Positions 1-10,880 of a stretch of 10,880 nt of DNA are shown one piece after another (within the stretch, counting starts at the first letter, position 1; the number at the start of each line of letters is the position of its first letter). Source of the stretch: Octopus sinensis (lineage: Eukaryota). Below the pieces are notes generated by a model that did no database searches, was not told the DNA's origin, and saw only the letters and a program-made list of their open reading frames with translations. Location of the stretch: positions 1-10,880 of the forward strand of contig NW_021826548.1 in NCBI RefSeq assembly GCF_006345805.1, given 5' to 3'. Position numbers and translations under genes: made by a program.

Positions 1-1483
1 AGGGTACTTGAGATTATGTAATAGATTGCGTAATAAATTCGGTAATATATTATGCAATTTGGGGAAGTCTCTAGATTTAAGTATATGAGGGTACTTGAGA
101 TTATTAAATAAATTATGTAATAAATTGCGTAATACATAATGCTATTTGCGGAGTTCCCAAGATTTAGTGATACGAGGGTACTTGAGATTATGTAAAGATT
201 GCGTCATATATTGCGTAATATATTATGCAATTTGTGGAAGTCTCTAGATTTATGTATATGAGGGTACTTGAGATTATGAAATAGATTGCGTAATAAATTG
301 CGTAATATATTATGCAATTTTGGGAGGTGCCAAGATGTAAAGATACGAGGGTACTTGAGATTATGTAATAGATTGCGTAATAAATTGCGTAATATATTAT
401 GCAATTTGTGGAAGTCTCTAGATTTATGTATATGAGGGTACTTGAGATTATGTAATAGATTGCGTAATAAATTGCGTAATATATTATGCAATTTTGGGAT
501 GTGCCAAGATGTGAAGATACGAGGGTATTTGAGATTATGTAATAGTTTGCGTAATAAATTGCGTAATATATTATGTAATTTTGGGATGTGCCAAGATGTG
601 AAGATACGAGGGTACTTGAGATTATGTAATAGATTGCGTAATAAATTGCGTAATATATTATGAAATTTTGGATGTGCCAAGATGTGAAGATACGAGGGTA
701 CTTGAGATTATGTAATAGATTGCGTCATATATTGCGTAATATATTATGTATTTGTGGAACTCTCTAGAATTATTATATGAGGGTACTTGAGATTATGTAA
801 TAATTGCGTAATAAATTGCGTAATATATTATGCAATTTTGGGAGGTGCCAAGATGTGAAGATACGAGGGTACTTGAGATTATGTAATAGATTGCTAATAA
901 ATGCGTAATATATTATGCATTTTTGGGAGGTGCCAAGATATGAAGATATGAGAAAACTGAGATTATGTAATAGATTGCTTCATATATTGCGTAATTATAT
1001 TATAATTTGTGGAAGTCTCTATTTTAGTATATGAGGGTACTTGAGATTATTAAATAAATTATGTAATAAATTGCGTAATATATAATGCTATTTGGGGGAG
1101 TTCCCAAGATTTAGTGATACGAGGGTACTTGAGATTATGTAATTATGTAAAGATTGCGTCATATATTGCGTAATATATTATGCATTTGTGGAAGTCTCTA
1201 GATTTATGTATATGAGGGTTATTGAGATTATGTAATAGATTGCGTAATAAATTGCGTATTTGGAGTGGTCCCTTGAATGTGAAGATACGAGGTACTTGAG
1301 ATTATGTAATAGATTGCGTAATAAATTCGGTAATATATTATGCAATTTGGGGAAGTCTCTAGATTTAAGTATATGAGGGTACTTGAGATTATGTAATAGA
1401 TTGCGTAATAAATTGCGTAATATATTATGTAATTTGTGAAAGTCTCTAGATTTATGTATATGAGGGTCCTTGAGATTATGTAA
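1..1483. repeat. 87-bp tandem satellite, segment 1
   Basis: GAGGGTACTTGAGATTATGTAA recurs about every 87 bp. The ORF track shows a 29-aa periodicity (87 nt). Confidence 0.97.
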
Positions 1484-1757
1484 GATTGGAAAGTACAAGA
1501 AGCTCTCTGAACGGTATCTGTTCACGTCCCCTCGCCGTCGAGACTTCCGGCGTCATCGGCGAAAAGTCTCTTTCCTTTCTAAAAAGCTTGGCGCATGATC
1601 TCCCATAAACGGGGAGACCCACGCGAGTCCAAGTGGCTTTTCGAAAGGATTTCCTTGGCCATAGTACGTGGAAACTGTGTTTCCATTTACGATGCCGGGA
1701 ATTTGTAGTTAATAACTATTGTTAATTACATATAACTTTTAAAAATAAAAAAAAAAA
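1484..1757 (+). mobile_element. 5'-truncated 3' end of a CRE-like non-LTR retrotransposon, copy 1 (frameshifted)
   Basis: Near-identical to 6299-6576. Ends in poly(A) at ~1741-1757. Small indels break the frame. Confidence 0.8.
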
Positions 1758-2860
1758 GTTGCGTAATATATTATACAATTTGGGAGGTGCCAAGATGTGA
1801 AGATATGAGGATACTTGAGATTATATAATAGATTGCGTAATAAATTAGGTAATATATTATGTAATTTGGAGAGTCCCTTGATGTGAAGATACGAGGGTAT
1901 TTGAGATTATGTAATAGATGCGTAATAAATTGCGTAATTATAATTATGTAATTTTGGGAGGTGCCAAGATGTGAAGATACGAGGGTACTTGAGATTATGT
2001 AATAGATTGCGTAATAAATTGCGTAATATATTATGCAATTTTGGGAGGTCCCTTGATGTGAAGATACGAGGGTATTGAGATTATGTAATAGATTGCGTAA
2101 TAATTGCGTAATATATTATGCAATTTTGGGAGGTGCCAAGATGTGAAGATACGAATGTACTTGAGATTATGAATAGATTGCGTAATAAATGCGTAATATA
2201 TTATGCAATTTTGGGAGGTGCCAAGATGTGAAGATATGAGGATACTTGAGATTATTTAATAGATAGCGTCATATATTGCGTATAATTATATGTAATTTGT
2301 GGAAGTCTCTAGATTTATATATGAGGGTACTTGAGATATTAAATAAATTATGTAATAAATTGCTTAATATATAATGCTATTTGGAGTTCCCAAGATTTAG
2401 TGATACGAGGGTACTTGAGATTATGTAAAGATTGCGTCATATATTGCGTAATATATTATGCAATTTGGTGGAAGTCTCTAGATTTATGTATATGAGGGTA
2501 CTTGAAATTATGTAATAGATTGCGTAATAAATTGCGTAATATATTATGCATTTTGGGAGGTGCCAAGATGTGAAGATACGAGGGTACTTGAGATTATGTA
2601 ATAGATTGCGTAATAAATTGCGTAATATATTATGCAATTATGGGATGTGCCAAGATGTGAAGATACGAGGGTACTTGAGATTATGTAATAGAATGCGTCA
2701 TATATTGCGTAATATATTATGTAATTGTGGAAGTCTCTAGAATTATGTATATGAGGGTACTTGAGATTATGTAATAAATTGCGTAATAATTGCGTAATAT
2801 ATTATGCAATTTTGGGAGGTGCCAAGATGTGAAGATACGAGGGTACTTGAGATTATGTAA
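1758..2860. repeat. 87-bp tandem satellite, segment 2
   Basis: Same monomer. Includes an empty transposon target site (GAGA-TTATA-TAATAG, TTATA at 1821-1825). Confidence 0.97.
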
Positions 2861-3127
2861 GATTGGAAAGTACAAGAAGCTCTCTGAACGGTATCTGTTC
2901 ACTCCATCGCGTCGAAACTTACGGCGTCATCGGCGAAAAGTTCTCTTTCCTCTAAAAAAGCTTGCCGCATGATCTCCCATAAACGGGGAGACCCACGCGA
3001 GTCCAAGTGGCTTTTCGAAAGGATTTCCTTGGCCATAGTACGTGGAAACTGTGTTTCCATTTACGATGCCGGGATTTAGTTAGTTAATAACTATTTGTTA
3101 ATTAATATAACTTTTAAAAAAAAAAAA
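2861..3127 (+). mobile_element. 5'-truncated 3' end of a CRE-like non-LTR retrotransposon, copy 2 (frameshifted)
   Basis: Near-identical to 6299-6576, with the same 5' junction (TTATGTAA|GATTGG) and 3' junction (poly(A)|GTTGCGTAA). Confidence 0.8.
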
Positions 3128-6100
3128 GTTGCGTAATATATTATCAATTTGGGAGGTGCCAAGATGTGAAGATATGAGGATACTTGAGATTATATAATAG
3201 ATTGCGTAATAAATTAGGTAATATATTATGTAATTTGGAGAGGTCCCTTGATGTGAAGATACGAGGGTACTTGAGATTATGTAATAGATTGCGTAATAAA
3301 TTGCGTAATATATTATGCAATTTTGGGAGGTGCCAAGATGTGAAGATACGAGGGTACTTGAGATTATGTAATAGATTGCGTAATAAATTGCGTAATATAT
3401 TATGTAATTTGGAGAGGTCCCTTGATGTGAAGATACGAGGGTACTTGAAATTATGTAATTGATTGCGTAATAAGTTGCGTAATATATTATGCAATTTTAT
3501 GATGTGCCAAGATGTGAAGATACGAGGGTACTTGAGATTATGTAATAGATTGCGTAATAAATTAGGTAATATATTATGTAATTTGTGGAAGTCTCTAGAT
3601 TTAAGTATATGAGGGTACTTGAGATTATTAAATAAATTATGTAATAAATTGCGTAATACATAATGCTATTTGCGGAGTTCCCAAGATTTAGTGATACGAG
3701 GGTACTTGAGATTATGTAAAGATTGCGTCTATATTGCGTAATATATTATGCAATTTGTGGAAGTCTCTAGATTTATGTATATGAGGGTACTTGAGATATG
3801 AATAGATTGCGTAATAAATGCGTATATATTATGCAATTTTGGGAGGTGCCAAGATGTAAAGATACAGGGTACTTGAGATTATGTAATAGATTGCGTAATA
3901 AATGCGTAATATATTATGCAATTTGTGGAAGTCTCTAGATTTATGTATATGAGGGTACTTGAGATTATGTAATAGATGCGTATAAATTGCGTAATATATT
4001 ATGCAATTTTGGGATGTGCCAAGATGTGAAGATACGAGGGTATTTGAGATTATGTAATAGATTGCGTAATAAATTGCGTAATATATTATGTAATTGGGAG
4101 TTTGCCAAGATGTGAAGAACGAGGGTACTTGAGATTATGTAATAGATTGCGTAATAAATGCGTAATATATTATGAAATTTTGGGATGTGCCAAGATGTGA
4201 AGATACGAGGGTACTTGAGATATGTAATAGATTGCGTCATATATTGCGTAATATATTATGTAATTTGTGGAAGTCTCTAGAATTATGTATATGAGGGTAC
4301 TTGAGATTATGTAATAAATTGCGTAATAAATTGCGTAATAAATTGCGTAATATATTATGCAATTTTGGGAGGTGCCAAGATGTGAAGATACGAGGGTACT
4401 TGAGATTATGTAATAGATTGCGTAATAAATTGCGTAATATATTATGCAATTTTGGGAGGTGCCAAGATATGAAGATATGAGAAAACTTGAGATTATGTAA
4501 TAGATTGCTTCATATATTGCGTAATATATTATGTAATTTGTGGAAGTCTCTAGATTTAAGTATATGAGGGTACTTGAGATTATTAAATAAATTATGTAAT
4601 AAATTGCGTAATATATAATGCTATTTGGGGAGTTCCCAAGATTTAGTGATACGAGGGTACTTGAGATTATGTAAATTATGTAAAGATTGCGTCATATATT
4701 GCGTAATATTATGCAATTTGTGGAAGTCTCTAGATTATGTATATGAGGGTTATTGAGATTATGTAATAGATTGCGTATAAATTGCGTAATTTGGAGTGGT
4801 CCTAGATGTGAAGATACGAGGGTACTTGAGATTATGTAATAGATTGCGTAATAAATTCGGTAATATATTATGCAATTTGGGGAAGTCTCTAGATTTAAGT
4901 ATATGAGGGTACTTGAGATTATGTAATAGATTGCGTAATAAATTGCGTAATATATTATGTAATTTGTGAAAGTCTCTAGATTTATGTATATGAGGGTACT
5001 TGAGATTATGTAATAGATTGCGTAATAAATTGCGTAATATAATATGCAATTTGTGGAAGTCTCTAGATTTATGTATATGAGGGTACTTGAGACTATGTAA
5101 TAGATTGCGTAATATATTATGCAATTTTGGGAGGTGCCAAGATGTGAAGATACGAGGGTACTTGAGATTATGTAATAGATTGCGTCATATATTGCGTAAT
5201 ATATTATGTAATTTGTGAAAGTCTCTAGATTTATGTATATGAGGGTACTTGAGATTATGTAATAGATTGCGTAATAAATTGCGTAATATAATATGCAATT
5301 TTGGGAGGTGCCAAGATGTGAAGATACGAGGGTACTTGAGATTATGTAATAGATTGCGTAATAAATTCGGTAATATATTATGCAATTTGGGGAAGTCTCT
5401 AGATTTAAGTATATGAGGGTACTTGAGATTATTAAATAAATTATGTAATAAATTGCGTAATACATAATGCTATTGCGGAGTTCAAGATTTAGTGATACGA
5501 GGATACTTGAGATTATGTAAGATTGCGTCATATATTGCGTAATATATTATGCAATTTGTGGAAGTCTCTAGATTTATGTATATGAGGGTACTTGAGATTA
5601 TGTAATAGATTGCGTAATAATTGCTTAATATATTATGCAATTTTGGGAGGTGCCAAGATGTGAGATATGAGGATACTTGAGATTATTTAATAGATAGCGT
5701 CATATATTGCGTAATATATTATGTAATTTGTGGAAGTCTCTAGATGTATGTATGATGAGGTACTTGAGATTATTAAATAAATTATGTAATAAATTGCGTA
5801 ATATATAATGCTATTTGGGGAGTTCCCAAGATTTAGTGATACGAGGGTACTTGAGATTATGTAAAGATTGCGTCATATATTGCGTAATATATTATGCAAT
5901 TTGTGGAAGTCTCTAGATTTATGTATATGAGGGTACTTGAGATTATGTAATAGATTGCGTAATAAATTGCGTAATATATTATGCAATTTTGGGAGGTGCC
6001 AAGATGTGAAGATACGAGGGTACTTGAGATTATGTAATAGATTGCGTAATAAATTGCGTAATATATTATGCAATTTTGGGATGTGCCAAGATGTGAAGAT

Positions 6101-6298
6101 ACGAGGGTACTTGAGATTATGTAATAGATTGCGTCATATATTGCGTAATATATTATGTAATTTGTGGAAGTCTCTAGAATTATGTATATGAGGGTACTTG
6201 AGATTATGTAATAAATTGCGTAATAAATTGCGTAATATATTATGCAATTTTGGGAGGTGCCAAGATGTGAAGATACGAGGGTACTTGAGATTATGTAA
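3128..6298. repeat. 87-bp tandem satellite, segment 3
   Basis: Reference monomer 5929-6015: GAGGGTACTTGAGATTATGTAATAGATTGCGTAATAAATTGCGTAATATATTATGCAATTTTGGGAGGTGCCAAGATGTGAAGATAC. The next monomer starts at 6016. Confidence 0.97.
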
Positions 6299-6576
6299 GA
6301 TTGGAAAGTACAAGAAGCTCTCTGAACGGTATCTGTTCACTCCCATCGCCGTCGAAACTTCCGGCGTCATCGGCGAAAAGTCTCTTTCCTTTCTAAAAAA
6401 GCTTGGCCGCATGATCTCCCATAAACGGGGAGACCCACGCGAGTCCAAGTGGCTTTTCGAAAGGATTTCCTTGGCCATAGTACGTGGAAACTGTGTTTCC
6501 ATTTACGATGCCGGGAATTTAGTTAGTTAATAACTATTTGTTAATTACATATAACTTTTAAAAATAAAAAAAAAAA
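6299..6576 (+). mobile_element. 5'-truncated 3' end of a CRE-like non-LTR retrotransposon, copy 3 (best preserved)
   Basis: Open frame KIGKYKKLSERYLFTPIAVETSGVIGEKSLSFLKKLGRMISHKRGDPRESKWLFERISLAIVRGNCVSIYDAGNLVS* (stop 6528-6530). It fits the K..KY...Y.F.P.A.ET.G..G....FL..LG......R.S.AI.RGN pattern I recognise from the C-terminus of CRE-clade RLE retrotransposon proteins. A ~30-nt AT-rich UTR and a poly(A) tail follow. Family assignment is by motif recall, not by search. Confidence 0.85.
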
Positions 6577-6640
6577 GTTGCGTAATATATTATACAATTT
6601 TGGGAGGTGCCAAGATGTGAAGATATGAGGATACTTGAGA

Positions 6641-6645
6641 TTATA
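6641..6645 (+). repeat. Target-site duplication TTATA (partner at 8423-8427)
   Basis: Empty sites at 1821-1825 and 3190-3194 have a single TTATA in the same flanking context. Confidence 0.92.
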
Positions 6646-6679
6646 TGTCACAGTCCGAATAAACTACACGCCGAATAAT
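6646..6679 (+). repeat. Left terminal inverted repeat
   Basis: TGTCACAGTCCGAATAAACTACACGCCGAATAAT, containing two CCGAATAA direct repeats. Confidence 0.95.
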
Positions 6680-7095
6680 TACATTCTTTAATTTTACTGA
6701 AATTAAAAATTTACACAACAAAATGTTTAATTATTATAAAAATATGATTTTTAATGTAAAATTCATTAACCTTTTTTACTAATTTATATAAACAAAACCA
6801 ACCACACTCAATTTACGCAGTTAACTTATACGTTTGAATATTGTTAGTCCATTTTAGGTTATCCTAATAAATTTTCATATAAAATTTATCGTTAATTTAA
6901 ATAAAAAATTATTTTTATTAGGATTTATGAAAATTAATCAATTTTAGCTAATCGAGAAATATGAATTCCGTGTAACCGCTCACCGTCCTCCTTTTCGATA
7001 ACATAGAGATCATTTCTTCGCTCGACAACAATATACTTATTAACATCAAGTCCATCGTACAGCGATACTGCCGAACATTGGCATCGTTGTCCTGT

Positions 7096-7121
7096 CTAAA
7101 AATTAATTTGACGCTTGAGAC
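7096..7121 (-). other. Putative spliceosomal intron 5 (26 nt)
   Basis: AG|GTCTCAAGCGTCAAATTAATTTTTAG. It contains an in-frame TAA. Removal joins VGTTVLLR to QDNDAN. Confidence 0.65.
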
Positions 7122-7463
7122 CTTAAAAGCACAGTCGTTCCGACATTGATATTTTCTTCGTCGTATCTCCATTTTCTTTTTTCAATCATTTTTTCGCCAG
7201 CATAATTAAGTTTTCTAATGCACTTTCTCGTGCCTCTGATAATCCAGTTGAATCATAGGCTAAAAGTTTGCTCCATTCCCCCTTCATCAATCCTTCCAGG
7301 ATTTTCAACACCCATGAATATTAAAAAGGGATTTTTTTGTCGAAGAATGAATGCTGTTATTGTAATCATACACGATGTCCTTTATGCATTCGCGATATCG
7401 TCCAAAACAAATTTTGAGAAGAACTTGCCGACGATATCCAGCGTTTTAATGCTTTGATTAAAT

Positions 7464-7490
7464 CTACAAATCGATTTTTAAATCATTAAC
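7464..7490 (-). other. Putative spliceosomal intron 4 (27 nt)
   Basis: GTTAATGATTTAAAAATCGATTTGTAG. Removal plus one missing A restores the catalytic QGQVER-FNQ motif. Confidence 0.78.
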
Positions 7491-7730
7491 CTTCGACTTG
7501 CCTTGTACCCAAGGAGCACGAGGCCTCCCACGTACATGTTTTATACCATATTTCGTACATAGAGCATCCATTTGCGAATTGCAAAATCCCTTCCATTATC
7601 AGTGTGTAGAATAAGCGGAGGCCCGACATAATAAAAAATTCTTTGGAATAATCTGCGATTTCTTCAGAAGATTTGGTCACCGACAGTTCAAGCATTACAT
7701 ATTTGGAAAAAAATCCACAATTACCAAAAT

Positions 7731-7755
7731 CTATTTATTAACATTAAATTCATAC
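7731..7755 (-). other. Putative spliceosomal intron 3 (25 nt)
   Basis: TGG|GTATGAATTTAATGTTAATAAATAG. It contains an in-frame stop. Removal restores the conserved DGFSW-ILVIVD integrase strand exactly. Confidence 0.88.
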
Positions 7756-7879
7756 CCAGCTAAAGCCATCATTCAACGCCGAATATCTTCTGAGGTCAAT
7801 TAAATCCGCAATGTATCTGTCCCTACATCTCCTTGCAATGTTGGCGTATCGGAGGCTTCGTAGACAATAATTTTTTCGA

Positions 7880-7907
7880 CTAAGAATATTACTAAAAGGA
7901 TTATTAC
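7880..7907 (-). other. Putative spliceosomal intron 2 (28 nt)
   Basis: CAG|GTAATAATCCTTTTAGTAATATTCTTAG. Removal joins CAFCQ to SKKLLSTKPPIR. Confidence 0.75.
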
Positions 7908-8024
7908 CTGACAGAAAGCACAATTCGAAATCACCTTAGAGATTTCTTCTCTATTCAATCCATAATAGAGATTTCTTAATTTCGAAAAAGCGGTCTCTCC
8001 CAAAGTGTTATAGTTATGTTCCGC

Positions 8025-8047
8025 CTAATTTTATTTATTAAGTTGAC
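8025..8047 (-). other. Putative spliceosomal intron 1 (23 nt)
   Basis: GTCAACTTAATAAATAAAATTAG. AT-rich with GT-AG ends. Removal joins KCVE to AEHNY in frame. Confidence 0.7.
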
Positions 8048-8388
8048 CTCAACGCACTTAAGCTTTAATTCGATTTCATCTTCACAGAAAAAACGCAATT
8101 AAGCCCATTTTTTCGAAAATATGTTTTTCCCTTTTCAAAATGGAAATTCTTTCCCAATTTTGTGAGCCTGTAATCGCTCATGCCGCTCGATTGACGATGT
8201 ATCAAAGTTGGAGTCTTCATTTCTTTGATTTTGTCCAGTGTTTCCTTAATAATCTCACTACACGCATGTTTCACGCTTTTTTAAATAAAAAATAATAATG
8301 TGATTCTACTAAAATAATAATCAATTATTGATTTTTTTTCATCTAATTTTTAGATTTCTAATTTTTTCAGCCATTGTGACAAGTGTAG

Positions 8389-8422
8389 ATTATTCGGCGT
8401 GTATTTTATTCGGACTGTCACA
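8389..8422 (-). repeat. Right terminal inverted repeat
   Basis: Reverse complement TGTGACAGTCCGAATAAAATACACGCCGAATAAT, 2 mismatches to the left TIR. Confidence 0.95.
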
Positions 8423-10670
8423 TTATATAATAGATTGCGTAATAAATTAGGTAATATATTATGTAATTTGGAGAGGTCCCTTGATGTGAAGATACGAGGG
8501 TACTTGAGATTATGTAATAGATTGCGTAATAAATTGCGTAATATATTATGCAATTATGGGAGGTGCCAAGATGTGAAGATACGAGGGTACTTGAGATTAG
8601 TAATAGATTGCGTAATAAATTGCGTAATATATTATGTAATTTGGAGAGGTCCCTTGATGTGAAGATACGAGGGTACTTGAAATTTGTAATTGATTGCGTA
8701 ATAAGTTGCGTAAATATATGCAATTTTATGATGTGCAATGTGAAGATACAGGGTACTTGAGATTATGTAATAGATTGCGTAATAAATTATGTAATATATT
8801 ATGTAATTGTGGAAGTCTCTAGATTTAAGTATATGAGGGTACTTGAGATTATGTAATAAATTGCGTAATAAATTGCGTAATATATTATGCAATTTTGGGA
8901 GGTGCCAAGATGTGAAGATACGAGGGTACTTGAGATTATGTAATAGATTGCGTAATAAATTGCGTAATATATTATGCAATTTTGGGAGGTGCCAAGATGT
9001 GAAGATATGAGGATACTCGAGATTATTTAATAGATAGCGTCATATATTGCGTAATATATTATGTAATTTGTGGAAGTCTCTAGATTTATGTATATGAGGG
9101 TACTTGAGATTATTAAATAAATTATGTAATAAATTGCTTAATATATAATGCTATTTGGGGAGTTCCCAAGATTTAGTGATACGAGGGTACTTGAGATTAT
9201 GTAAAGATTGCGTCATATATTGCGTAATATATTATGCAATTTGTGGAAGTCTCTAGATTTATGTATATGAGGGTACTTGAGATTATGTAATAGATTGCGT
9301 AATAAATTGCGTAATATATTATGCAATTTTGGGAGGTGCCAAGATGTGAAGATACGAGGGTACTTGAGATTATGTAATAGATTGCGTAATAAATTGCGTA
9401 ATATATTATGCAATTTTGGGATGTGCCAAGATGTGAAGATACGAGGGTACTTGAGATTATGTAATAGATTGCGTCATATATTGCGTAATATATTATGTAA
9501 TTTGGAAGTTTCTAGAATTATGTATATGAGGGTACTGAGATTATGTAATTAATTGCGTAATAAATTGCGTAATAATTATGCAATTTTGGGAGGTGCCAAG
9601 ATGTGAAGATACGAGGGTACTTGAGATTATGTAATAGATTGCGTAATAATTGCGTAATATATTATGCATTTTTTGGGGTGCCAAGATATGAAGATATGAG
9701 AAAACTTGAGATTATGTAATAGATTGCGTAATAAATTAGGTATATATTATGTAATTTATAGAGGTACCTTGATGTGAAGATACGAGGATACTTGAGATTA
9801 TGTAATAGATTGCATAATAAATTAGGTAATATATTATGCAATTTTGGGAGGTGCTAAGATGTGAAGATACGAGGGTACTTGAGATTATGTAATAGATTGC
9901 TTCATATATTGCGTAATATATTATGTAATTTGTGGAAGTCTCTAGATTTAAGTATATGAGGGTACTTGAGATTATTAAATAAATTATGTAATAAATTGCG
10001 TAATATATAATGCTATTTGGGGAGTTCCCAAGATTTAGTGATACGAGGGTACTTGAGATTATGTAAATTATGTAAAGATTGCGTCATATATTGCGTAATA
10101 TATTATGCAATTTGTGGAAGTCTCTAGATTTATGTATATGAGGGTTATTGAGATTATGTAATAGATTGCGTAATAAATTGCGTAATTTGGAGTGGTCCCT
10201 TGATGTGAAGATACGAGGGTACTTGAGATTATGTAAAGATTGCGTCATATATTGCCTAATATATTATGCAATTTGTGGAAGTCTCTAGATTTATGTATAT
10301 GAGGGTACTTGAAATTATGTAATAGATTGCGTAATAAATTGCGTAATATATTATGCAATTTTGGGAGGTGCCAAGATGTGAAGATACGAGGGTACTTGAG
10401 ATTATGTAATAGATTGCGTAATAAATTGCGTAATATATTATGCAATTTTGGGATGTGCCAAGATGTGAAGATACGAGGGTACTTGAGATTATGTAATAGA
10501 TTGCGTCATATATTGCGTAATATATTATGTAATTTTGTGAAGTCTCTAGAATTATGTATATGAGGGTACTTGAGATTATGTAATAAAGTGCGTAATAAAT
10601 TGCGTAATATATTATGCAATTTTGGGAGGTTCCAAGATGTGAAGATACGAGGGTACTTGAGATTATGTAA
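8423..10670. repeat. 87-bp tandem satellite, segment 4
   Basis: Same monomer. It resumes exactly where the monomer at 6577-6645 was interrupted. Confidence 0.97.
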
Positions 10671-10880
10671 GATTGGAAAGTACAGAAGCTCTCGGAACGG
10701 TATCTGTTCACTCCCATCGCCGTCGAAACTTCCGGCGTCATCGGCGAAAAGTCTCTTTCCTTTCTAAAAAAGCTTGCCGCATGATCTCCCATAAACGGGG
10801 AGACCCACGCGAGTCCAAGTGGCTTTTCGAAAGGATTTCCTTGGCCATAGTACGTGGAAACTGTGTTTCCATTTACGATG
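10671..10880 (+). mobile_element. 5'-truncated 3' end of a CRE-like non-LTR retrotransposon, copy 4 (cut by window edge)
   Basis: Near-identical to 6299-6510 with the same 5' junction TTATGTAA|GATTGGAAAG. Confidence 0.8.

Follow-up and report, generated by a model that had tools for sequence, protein, structure and literature searches.

The locus analysed here raises the question of whether five AT-rich segments of 23 to 28 nt, which interrupt a transposase gene in an octopus assembly, are spliceosomal introns, and whose spliceosome would remove them. The window, meaning the whole stretch of DNA that was analysed, is the entire 10,880-nt contig C3019 of G000 (its own assembly, 2.72 Gb in 13,516 contigs), and consists of an array of an 87-bp satellite with one 1777-nt element inside it, at 6646-8422. 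Our preferred reading, to which we give a probability of roughly 0.9, is a joint one: that the segments are U2-type introns of the transposase gene of a Ginger2/Tdd element, and that the contig belongs to a co-assembled dicyemid with introns of about 27 nt. The features of the element are as follows.

6646..8422, minus strand: likely Ginger2/Tdd-type DNA transposon, 1777 nt here and 1797 nt in the cleanest copies, with TGT...ACA ends
8389..8422, minus strand: 5' terminal inverted repeat (TIR), 34 bp
6646..6679, plus strand: 3' TIR, 34 bp
6641..6645, plus strand: left copy of the target-site duplication (TSD) TTATA, 5 bp
8423..8427, plus strand: right copy of the TSD TTATA, 5 bp
8048..8267, minus strand: exon 1, the N-terminal region as far as the zinc finger, with the likely start ATG at 8267-8265
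8025..8047, minus strand: intron 1, phase 0, 23 nt here and 25 nt in 21 of 24 copies
7908..8024, minus strand: exon 2, H2C2 zinc finger
7880..7907, minus strand: intron 2, phase 0, 28 nt here and 30 nt (a multiple of three) in 22 of 25 copies, with an in-frame TAG at its end
7756..7879, minus strand: exon 3, YIADLID, region of the putative first catalytic Asp
7731..7755, minus strand: intron 3, phase 0, 25 nt, at a position that all 13 loci in the intron-bearing clade have in common
7491..7730, minus strand: exon 4, integrase core (LHTDNG ... GQVER)
7464..7490, minus strand: intron 4, phase 2, 27 nt here and 26 nt in 26 of 27 copies, at a position found in 13 of 13 clade loci
7122..7463, minus strand: exon 5
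7096..7121, minus strand: intron 5, phase 2, 26 nt, at a position common only to family L078/L079
6934..7095, minus strand: exon 6, ending at the stop TAA (6936-6934), without a GPY/F motif

The homologue P0001 aligned from its residue 1 at the ATG within exon 1 (at the corresponding site of copy L002), and on this ground we rejected a further, sixth intron close to the 5' end. In Pfam, exon 2 matched the zinc finger family PF17921 with E 2.2e-6 in L002 and E 0.23 in the window frame, and the frame of copy L010 corresponding to exon 4 matched the integrase core PF00665 with E 9e-15. The Asp in exon 3 would be catalytic by analogy with the integrase family. No Pfam family was found for exon 6, and the window copy's own broken frames gave only sub-threshold Pfam matches.

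The sequence-only reading had described five short AT-rich segments on the minus strand, each beginning with GT, ending with TAG and containing a TAA, and their coordinates and lengths (23, 28, 25, 27 and 26 nt, 69-84% AT) proved to be as claimed. Since the element also contains about 100 GT..AG spans of 15-40 nt, however, the GT..AG appearance of the five segments lends by itself weak support to their being introns. It had also been claimed that removal of the segments restores conserved motifs, W/ILVIVD exactly and VER/FNQ once one base is repaired. The introns themselves were upheld by homology, as described below, but the errors had been understated, as the window copy differs from the column majority by 27 indel events, 21 of them 1-nt changes in single-letter runs, and carries 14 frameshifts relative to P0001. 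Its lengths of 23, 28 and 27 nt for introns 1, 2 and 4 are due to single-base differences from the modal lengths over the copies, which for introns 1 to 5 are 25, 30, 25, 26 and 26 nt (23 of 25 copies for intron 3 and 20 of 25 for intron 5, the others as listed above). Most other copies have a similar pattern of 1-nt indels in single-letter runs, which is likely to reflect uncorrected long-read sequencing error.

We searched the assembly for further copies of the element, scoring 40 of 221 candidates, and obtained at least 105 matches, of which the 30 best copies, fetched as loci, were 92-100% identical. Among the matches listed, every element copy lay on a contig numbered above 2000. Whether other copies conserve the GT and AG ends, a check proposed at the outset, is answered in the affirmative: these ends were kept in 23/24, 23/25, 24/25, 24/27 and 24/25 copies for introns 1 to 5, respectively, and the misses at intron 4 in L001 and L007 are alignment shifts only. 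In the cleanest copies, which depart from the column majority by 0-2 substitutions, all five introns are present, and the similarity of these copies suggests that the element was active recently. With the five introns removed, the natural copy L002 has a longest open frame of 305 aa instead of 111 aa, one 1-nt frameshift being left in an A run of 7 or 8 letters, depending on the copy. None of the 16 near-full-length copies had a fully open spliced frame, and the two cleanest each had one 1-nt frameshift, within an A run. An extra intron at the break after HSSTKK was considered and rejected, as the copies differ there in having a run of 7 or of 8 A.

Several other loci (L021/L022, L023, L024/L025 and L029/L030) have internal deletions and keep both TIRs, some of them as near-identical pairs, and are likely to be non-autonomous derivatives. 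Truncated copies in L020 and L026 stop at flanking sequence that resembles other inserted elements, and a second piece, 80% similar, adjoins L002 (L002:43103-43163, in coordinates of contig C12462). Nested insertions thus appear to be common around the element copies.

We evaluated the segments by spliced alignment to copy L002, allowing the aligner free choice of any GT-AG intron of 12-120 nt. Introns 1-4 were chosen exactly by all seven homologues (P0001-P0007), while intron 5 was chosen by two of the seven and by P0128, P0129 and P0130 from a wider search, so that the gaps in homologues match the segments, as an earlier proposal for checking them had anticipated. When all 256 pairs of donor and acceptor dinucleotides were compared, GT-AG scored joint highest, together with GG-TA (892, relative to a median of 745 and to 603 without introns). 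A sequencing run of RNA or DNA (X1) yielded a contig of 238 nt that agrees with L002:2691-2954 at every base apart from a gap of 26 nt at 2816; this is the left-shifted position of intron 5 (L002:2818-2843), which is exactly absent. Because other X1 contigs still contained all or some of intron 4, and some of intron 2, X1 supports at most one of the five junctions, that of intron 5. A search of sequencing runs listed no RNA run holding the element, which argues neither for nor against splicing. Four of the introns are not multiples of three in length and the 30-nt intron 2 closes with an in-frame TAG, so that retention of any one would abolish the transposase.

A search of the assembly with P0001 gave 114 matches. 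In a midpoint-rooted tree of 17 of the 31 loci (near-duplicates excluded), built from the first 285 codons only and with L099 and P0007 as long branches, an intron-bearing clade was recovered with 98/97 support, comprising 13 loci of about 12 families that are 53-73% identical to L002. All 13 loci of this clade have an intron at P0001 codon 158 (phase 0) and another at codon 240 (phase 2); of the loci covering codons 76 and 116, 9 of 10 and 8 of 11, respectively, have an intron there. The introns at equal positions are unrelated in sequence and 22-31 nt long, save one doubtful call of 16 nt. This conservation of position among divergent families is the strongest test of whether the segments are introns. 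The earlier proposal of spliceosomal-type introns, at about one per 200-245 coding nt, is therefore supported by both homology and shared positions, and the five segments are almost certainly real spliceosomal introns.

Families without introns in the core of the gene were also found (L077, L087/L096 and L099). Ginger2-like families that lack introns and have open frames of about 400-470 aa (L077, L087-L089, L096, L098, L099, L101-L105) coexist with the intron-bearing clade, and TIR pairs are present in L087, L088, L096 and L099. We treated as coding the intron calls past codon 285 in the open-frame loci L077, L087-L089, L098, L099 and L101-L105, as well as similar single calls in L076, L080, L082, L083 and L091. 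L081 has at P0001 codon 195 a private 30-nt insert (GTAAGT..TAG) without an in-frame stop, which could be a young intron or a coding insertion of 10 residues. The proteins P0001 and P0128-P0130 are uninterrupted and 42-55% alike to each other, with P0001 nested in the intron-bearing clade, and they may be spliced transcripts of other dicyemids or intronless relatives. A tentative history of these introns, to which we would give somewhat less than even odds, starts with the gain of four introns of 22-31 nt, already at their minimal size, by one dicyemid Ginger2 clade, whose sister families within that genome have none; a fifth intron would have followed (in this element and in L078), and perhaps a sixth (in L081), and some branches would have lost single introns. 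This history depends on the midpoint-rooted tree with its long branches and on three intronless families.

The earlier argument that the element moves as DNA is borne out by its 34-bp TIRs, its mostly 5-bp TSDs, its single gene and the presence of introns in nearly all copies. TIR pairs were found in 12 of the 31 loci examined, and 8 of the 13 copies with both ends had an exact 5-bp TSD (one of the others had 4 bp, one 7 bp and three none). Bao, Kapitonov and Jurka (2010; PMC2836005, in its available portions) define Ginger2/Tdd elements by TGTNR ends, TIRs, a TSD of 4 bp in animals or 5 bp in TDD elements, AT-rich targets, an H2C2 finger with a DDE core, and neither GPY/F nor YPYY. The element described here has TGTNR termini (TGTGA and TGTCA), TIRs, the H2C2 finger (PF17921, in L002) and the DDE core (PF00665, in L010). 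Neither a GPY/F nor a YPYY motif was present in its translations, and no reverse transcriptase or RNase H was found, the single gene filling the 1.8-kb element. Its targets are AT-rich, as in Ginger2/Tdd elements, and it resembles TDD-4 and TDD-5 in its 5-bp TSD, whereas the animal Ginger2 elements in the published descriptions available have a 4-bp TSD. It also differs in its shorter TIRs (34 bp, versus 45-297 bp in PMC2836005 Table 2, as available), in its size (1.8 kb, versus 2.7-6.7 kb for autonomous elements in the same source) and in its five introns of 25-30 nt. Relatives of the element are named KRAB-A domain-containing protein 2, which agrees with the derivation of KRBA2/SCAND3 from Ginger2 given in the available part of PMC3575427. 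As every tested feature agreed, the element is likely to be of Ginger2/Tdd type, its placement relative to reference transposases being by feature descriptions and the names of relatives.

Introns in such transposase genes have a precedent in Ginger1, some of whose transposase genes have 1-4 introns (PMC2836005, available portions). Ginger1 shares with the present element an integrase-like transposase, TGT ends and transposase introns, but differs in its 4-bp CCGG/CCGT TSD, relative to the AT-rich 5-bp TSDs here, and in its GPY/F, YPYY and OTU or Ulp1 domains, none of which were found here. TDD-4 has introns as well. A Gypsy-type LTR retrotransposon was rejected, as the terminal repeats are inverted rather than direct and there is a single integrase-like gene in place of gag, reverse transcriptase and RNase H. 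GingerRoot elements differ in having 6-bp TSDs and mostly TA ends and in being much larger (PMC6839031, as far as its text is available).

The remainder of the window (1-6645 and 8423-10880) is the AT-rich 87-bp satellite, with several unit variants and a higher-order repeat; its matches lay on unplaced contigs only (best 150 of 575 matches). Four plus-strand copies of a 5'-truncated, A-tailed piece lie within the array at about 1487-1758, 2861-3128, 6298-6578 and 10660-10880, with a frame that reads FTPIAVETSG ... FERISLAIVRGN. We take it to resemble the C-terminal restriction-like endonuclease of CRE-type non-LTR retrotransposons; no Pfam match was found for it. As the piece occupies a constant satellite position in all four copies, it was amplified together with the array. 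At least 40 copies of it occur in the assembly, at 96-100% identity.

In order to identify the owner of this DNA, we compared introns of housekeeping genes in the same assembly. On unplaced contigs, seven tubulin genes had 20 introns of 26-32 nt, and five HSP70 genes had another 20, of which 18 were 24-31 nt and two were called at 51 and 65 nt; together, 38 of 40 fell at 24-32 nt, with a median of 27 nt. Excluded from the count were calls of 24-27 nt near tubulin codon 360 (L047, L048, L054, L058, L070), which match a coding insertion of alpha-tubulins, calls of 48-57 nt in the HSP70 C-terminal repeat, and the duplicate loci L049, L132, L140, L147 and L152. Runs of neighbouring calls in chromosomal genes were also excluded, as they represent long introns split by the limit set on intron length. 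The tubulin and HSP70 introns on chromosomal contigs were at least 95 nt long, mostly with GTAAGT or GTGAGT donors and pyrimidine tracts. The element's introns had been thought exceptional in size, far below the usual animal minimum, but against the intron-length distribution of the likely owner this does not hold: at 25-30 nt they are of normal size, and the surprise disappears because the likely host's own introns are about 27 nt long. On C8845 and C9082, copies of the element occur together with housekeeping genes whose introns are 24-31 nt long, and the retrotransposon piece is also present on tiny-intron contigs (e.g. C8595, C7755 and C8698).

The assembly has two kinds of 18S, one of about 2.6 kb, GC-rich and mostly on large contigs, the other of 1667 nt and 45% GC on C1618; they are 73-84% alike over the aligning stretches only. 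The dicyemid 18S primers F3 and R2, published in the supplement of PMC6778094, matched the C1618 18S with 2 and 0 mismatches, respectively, and neither matched the chromosomal 18S tested (2645 nt, 64% GC) within 3 mismatches. C1618 is separate from both C3019 and the tiny-intron contigs, and we infer that they come from the same organism. The simplest reading is that the assembly includes the genome of a dicyemid, a tiny kidney parasite, which would have been co-assembled with its octopus host. The unplaced contigs, for example C1794 (more than 1.2 Mb), C7755, C8460, C8845, C9082, C12459-C12603 and C1618, contain a second animal genome, whose introns measure about 27 nt and whose compact 18S fits the dicyemid primers.

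We considered it improbable that the introns are real and the co-assembled organism is another parasite with small introns, whether a myxozoan, a microsporidian or a ciliate. These groups also have introns below 30 nt (PMC13644364, available part), and for P0003, one of the transposase relatives, a microsporidian is the named source. The tiny-intron tubulin, however, is of animal type, its beta-tubulin being 95-96% identical to animal beta-tubulins, although a search with tubulin exons for a dicyemid-named match returned generic animal tubulins only. Tubulin and HSP70 are readable in the standard code, no gene having more than one stop, the sole non-host 18S found fits the dicyemid primers, and the donors vary (GTC, GTA, GTT) as in reports on dicyemids, unlike those of microsporidia, which are generally described as strictly GTAAGT.

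Residence of the element in the octopus genome itself, either as a native or as a parasite-derived element, with the octopus spliceosome removing 25-nt introns, is less probable still. The window does belong to the octopus assembly, its contig has no host gene by which to place it, and P0005, a protein identical to locus L077 on C1794, bears an octopus species name in its source. However, C1794 also carries families with tiny introns, and among the matches listed the large contigs C1-C30 had no match to the element, its relatives, the satellite (best 150 of 575 matches) or the retrotransposon piece; moreover, the tested chromosomal introns have the minimum of 95 nt given above. The weakest alternative, that the segments are unspliced decay insertions or assembly artefacts of a dead element, draws on the many 1-nt errors of the window copy, the commonness of chance GT..AG spans and the retention of intron 4 in some X1 contigs, but is very hard to reconcile with positions and phases shared by about 12 divergent families whose intron sequences are unrelated, with copies that retain all five introns at 0-2 substitutions from the majority, and with the exact loss of intron 5 from one X1 contig.

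Under the preferred reading of a Ginger2/Tdd element in a dicyemid, the element would be transcribed from within its own 5' end, and the parasite's U2 spliceosome, presumably needing little beyond GT..AG and a fixed short length, would remove the five introns to give an mRNA for a transposase of about 404 aa. This transposase would bind the 34-bp TIRs and cut at TGT..ACA, and the DNA copy would be inserted at AT-rich sites with a 5-bp stagger, by cut-and-paste. The introns would be kept because it is the DNA copy that moves.

Dicyemid introns of this size are already known. They have a mean of 26.2 nt by comparison of cDNA with genomic sequence (PMC2222250) or a median of 27 bp (PMC6543705), while a further report gives means of 38 nt for introns and 198 nt for exons, with repeats making up 49% of the genome (PMC6736024), and dicyemids and myxobolids are named as the animal lineages with introns below 30 bp and reduced splice signals (PMC13644364), each in the available portion of the source. 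The introns described here agree with those of dicyemids in length (25-30 nt), GT..AG ends, weak further consensus, A-rich interior and a density of about one per 200 coding nt, but differ in lying within a mobile gene, at positions conserved over a transposon radiation. Intron-bearing Ginger transposons are likewise known. We found no paper in the freely readable literature on such introns in mobile genes, on DNA transposons of dicyemids, Ginger elements included, or on contigs of dicyemid origin within an octopus assembly. The apparent novelties are thus a radiation of dicyemid Ginger2 elements with apparent intron gain and, likely and apparently unreported, a long-contig parasite genome concealed within the assembly of an octopus.

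The conservation of intron positions over the transposon radiation confirms that introns of 25 nt can be processed by an animal spliceosome, even where the gene is a selfish one and its splice signals are weak. PMC13644364 closes, in its available text, on the open question of how introns this short are recognised, and for this question the element offers a compact test gene with five introns, together with a series of gains and losses. If the proposed history of gain is true, the radiation is a natural series for intron gain and loss in the presence of a spliceosome tuned to lengths near 25 nt, and could test whether poor splicing throttles transposase output. Many unplaced contigs of the octopus assembly, at least one of them over 1.2 Mb, are likely dicyemid, and proteins from them, such as P0005, carry an octopus label in public databases. 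These contigs provide a workable genome for a phylum that has been sparsely sampled.
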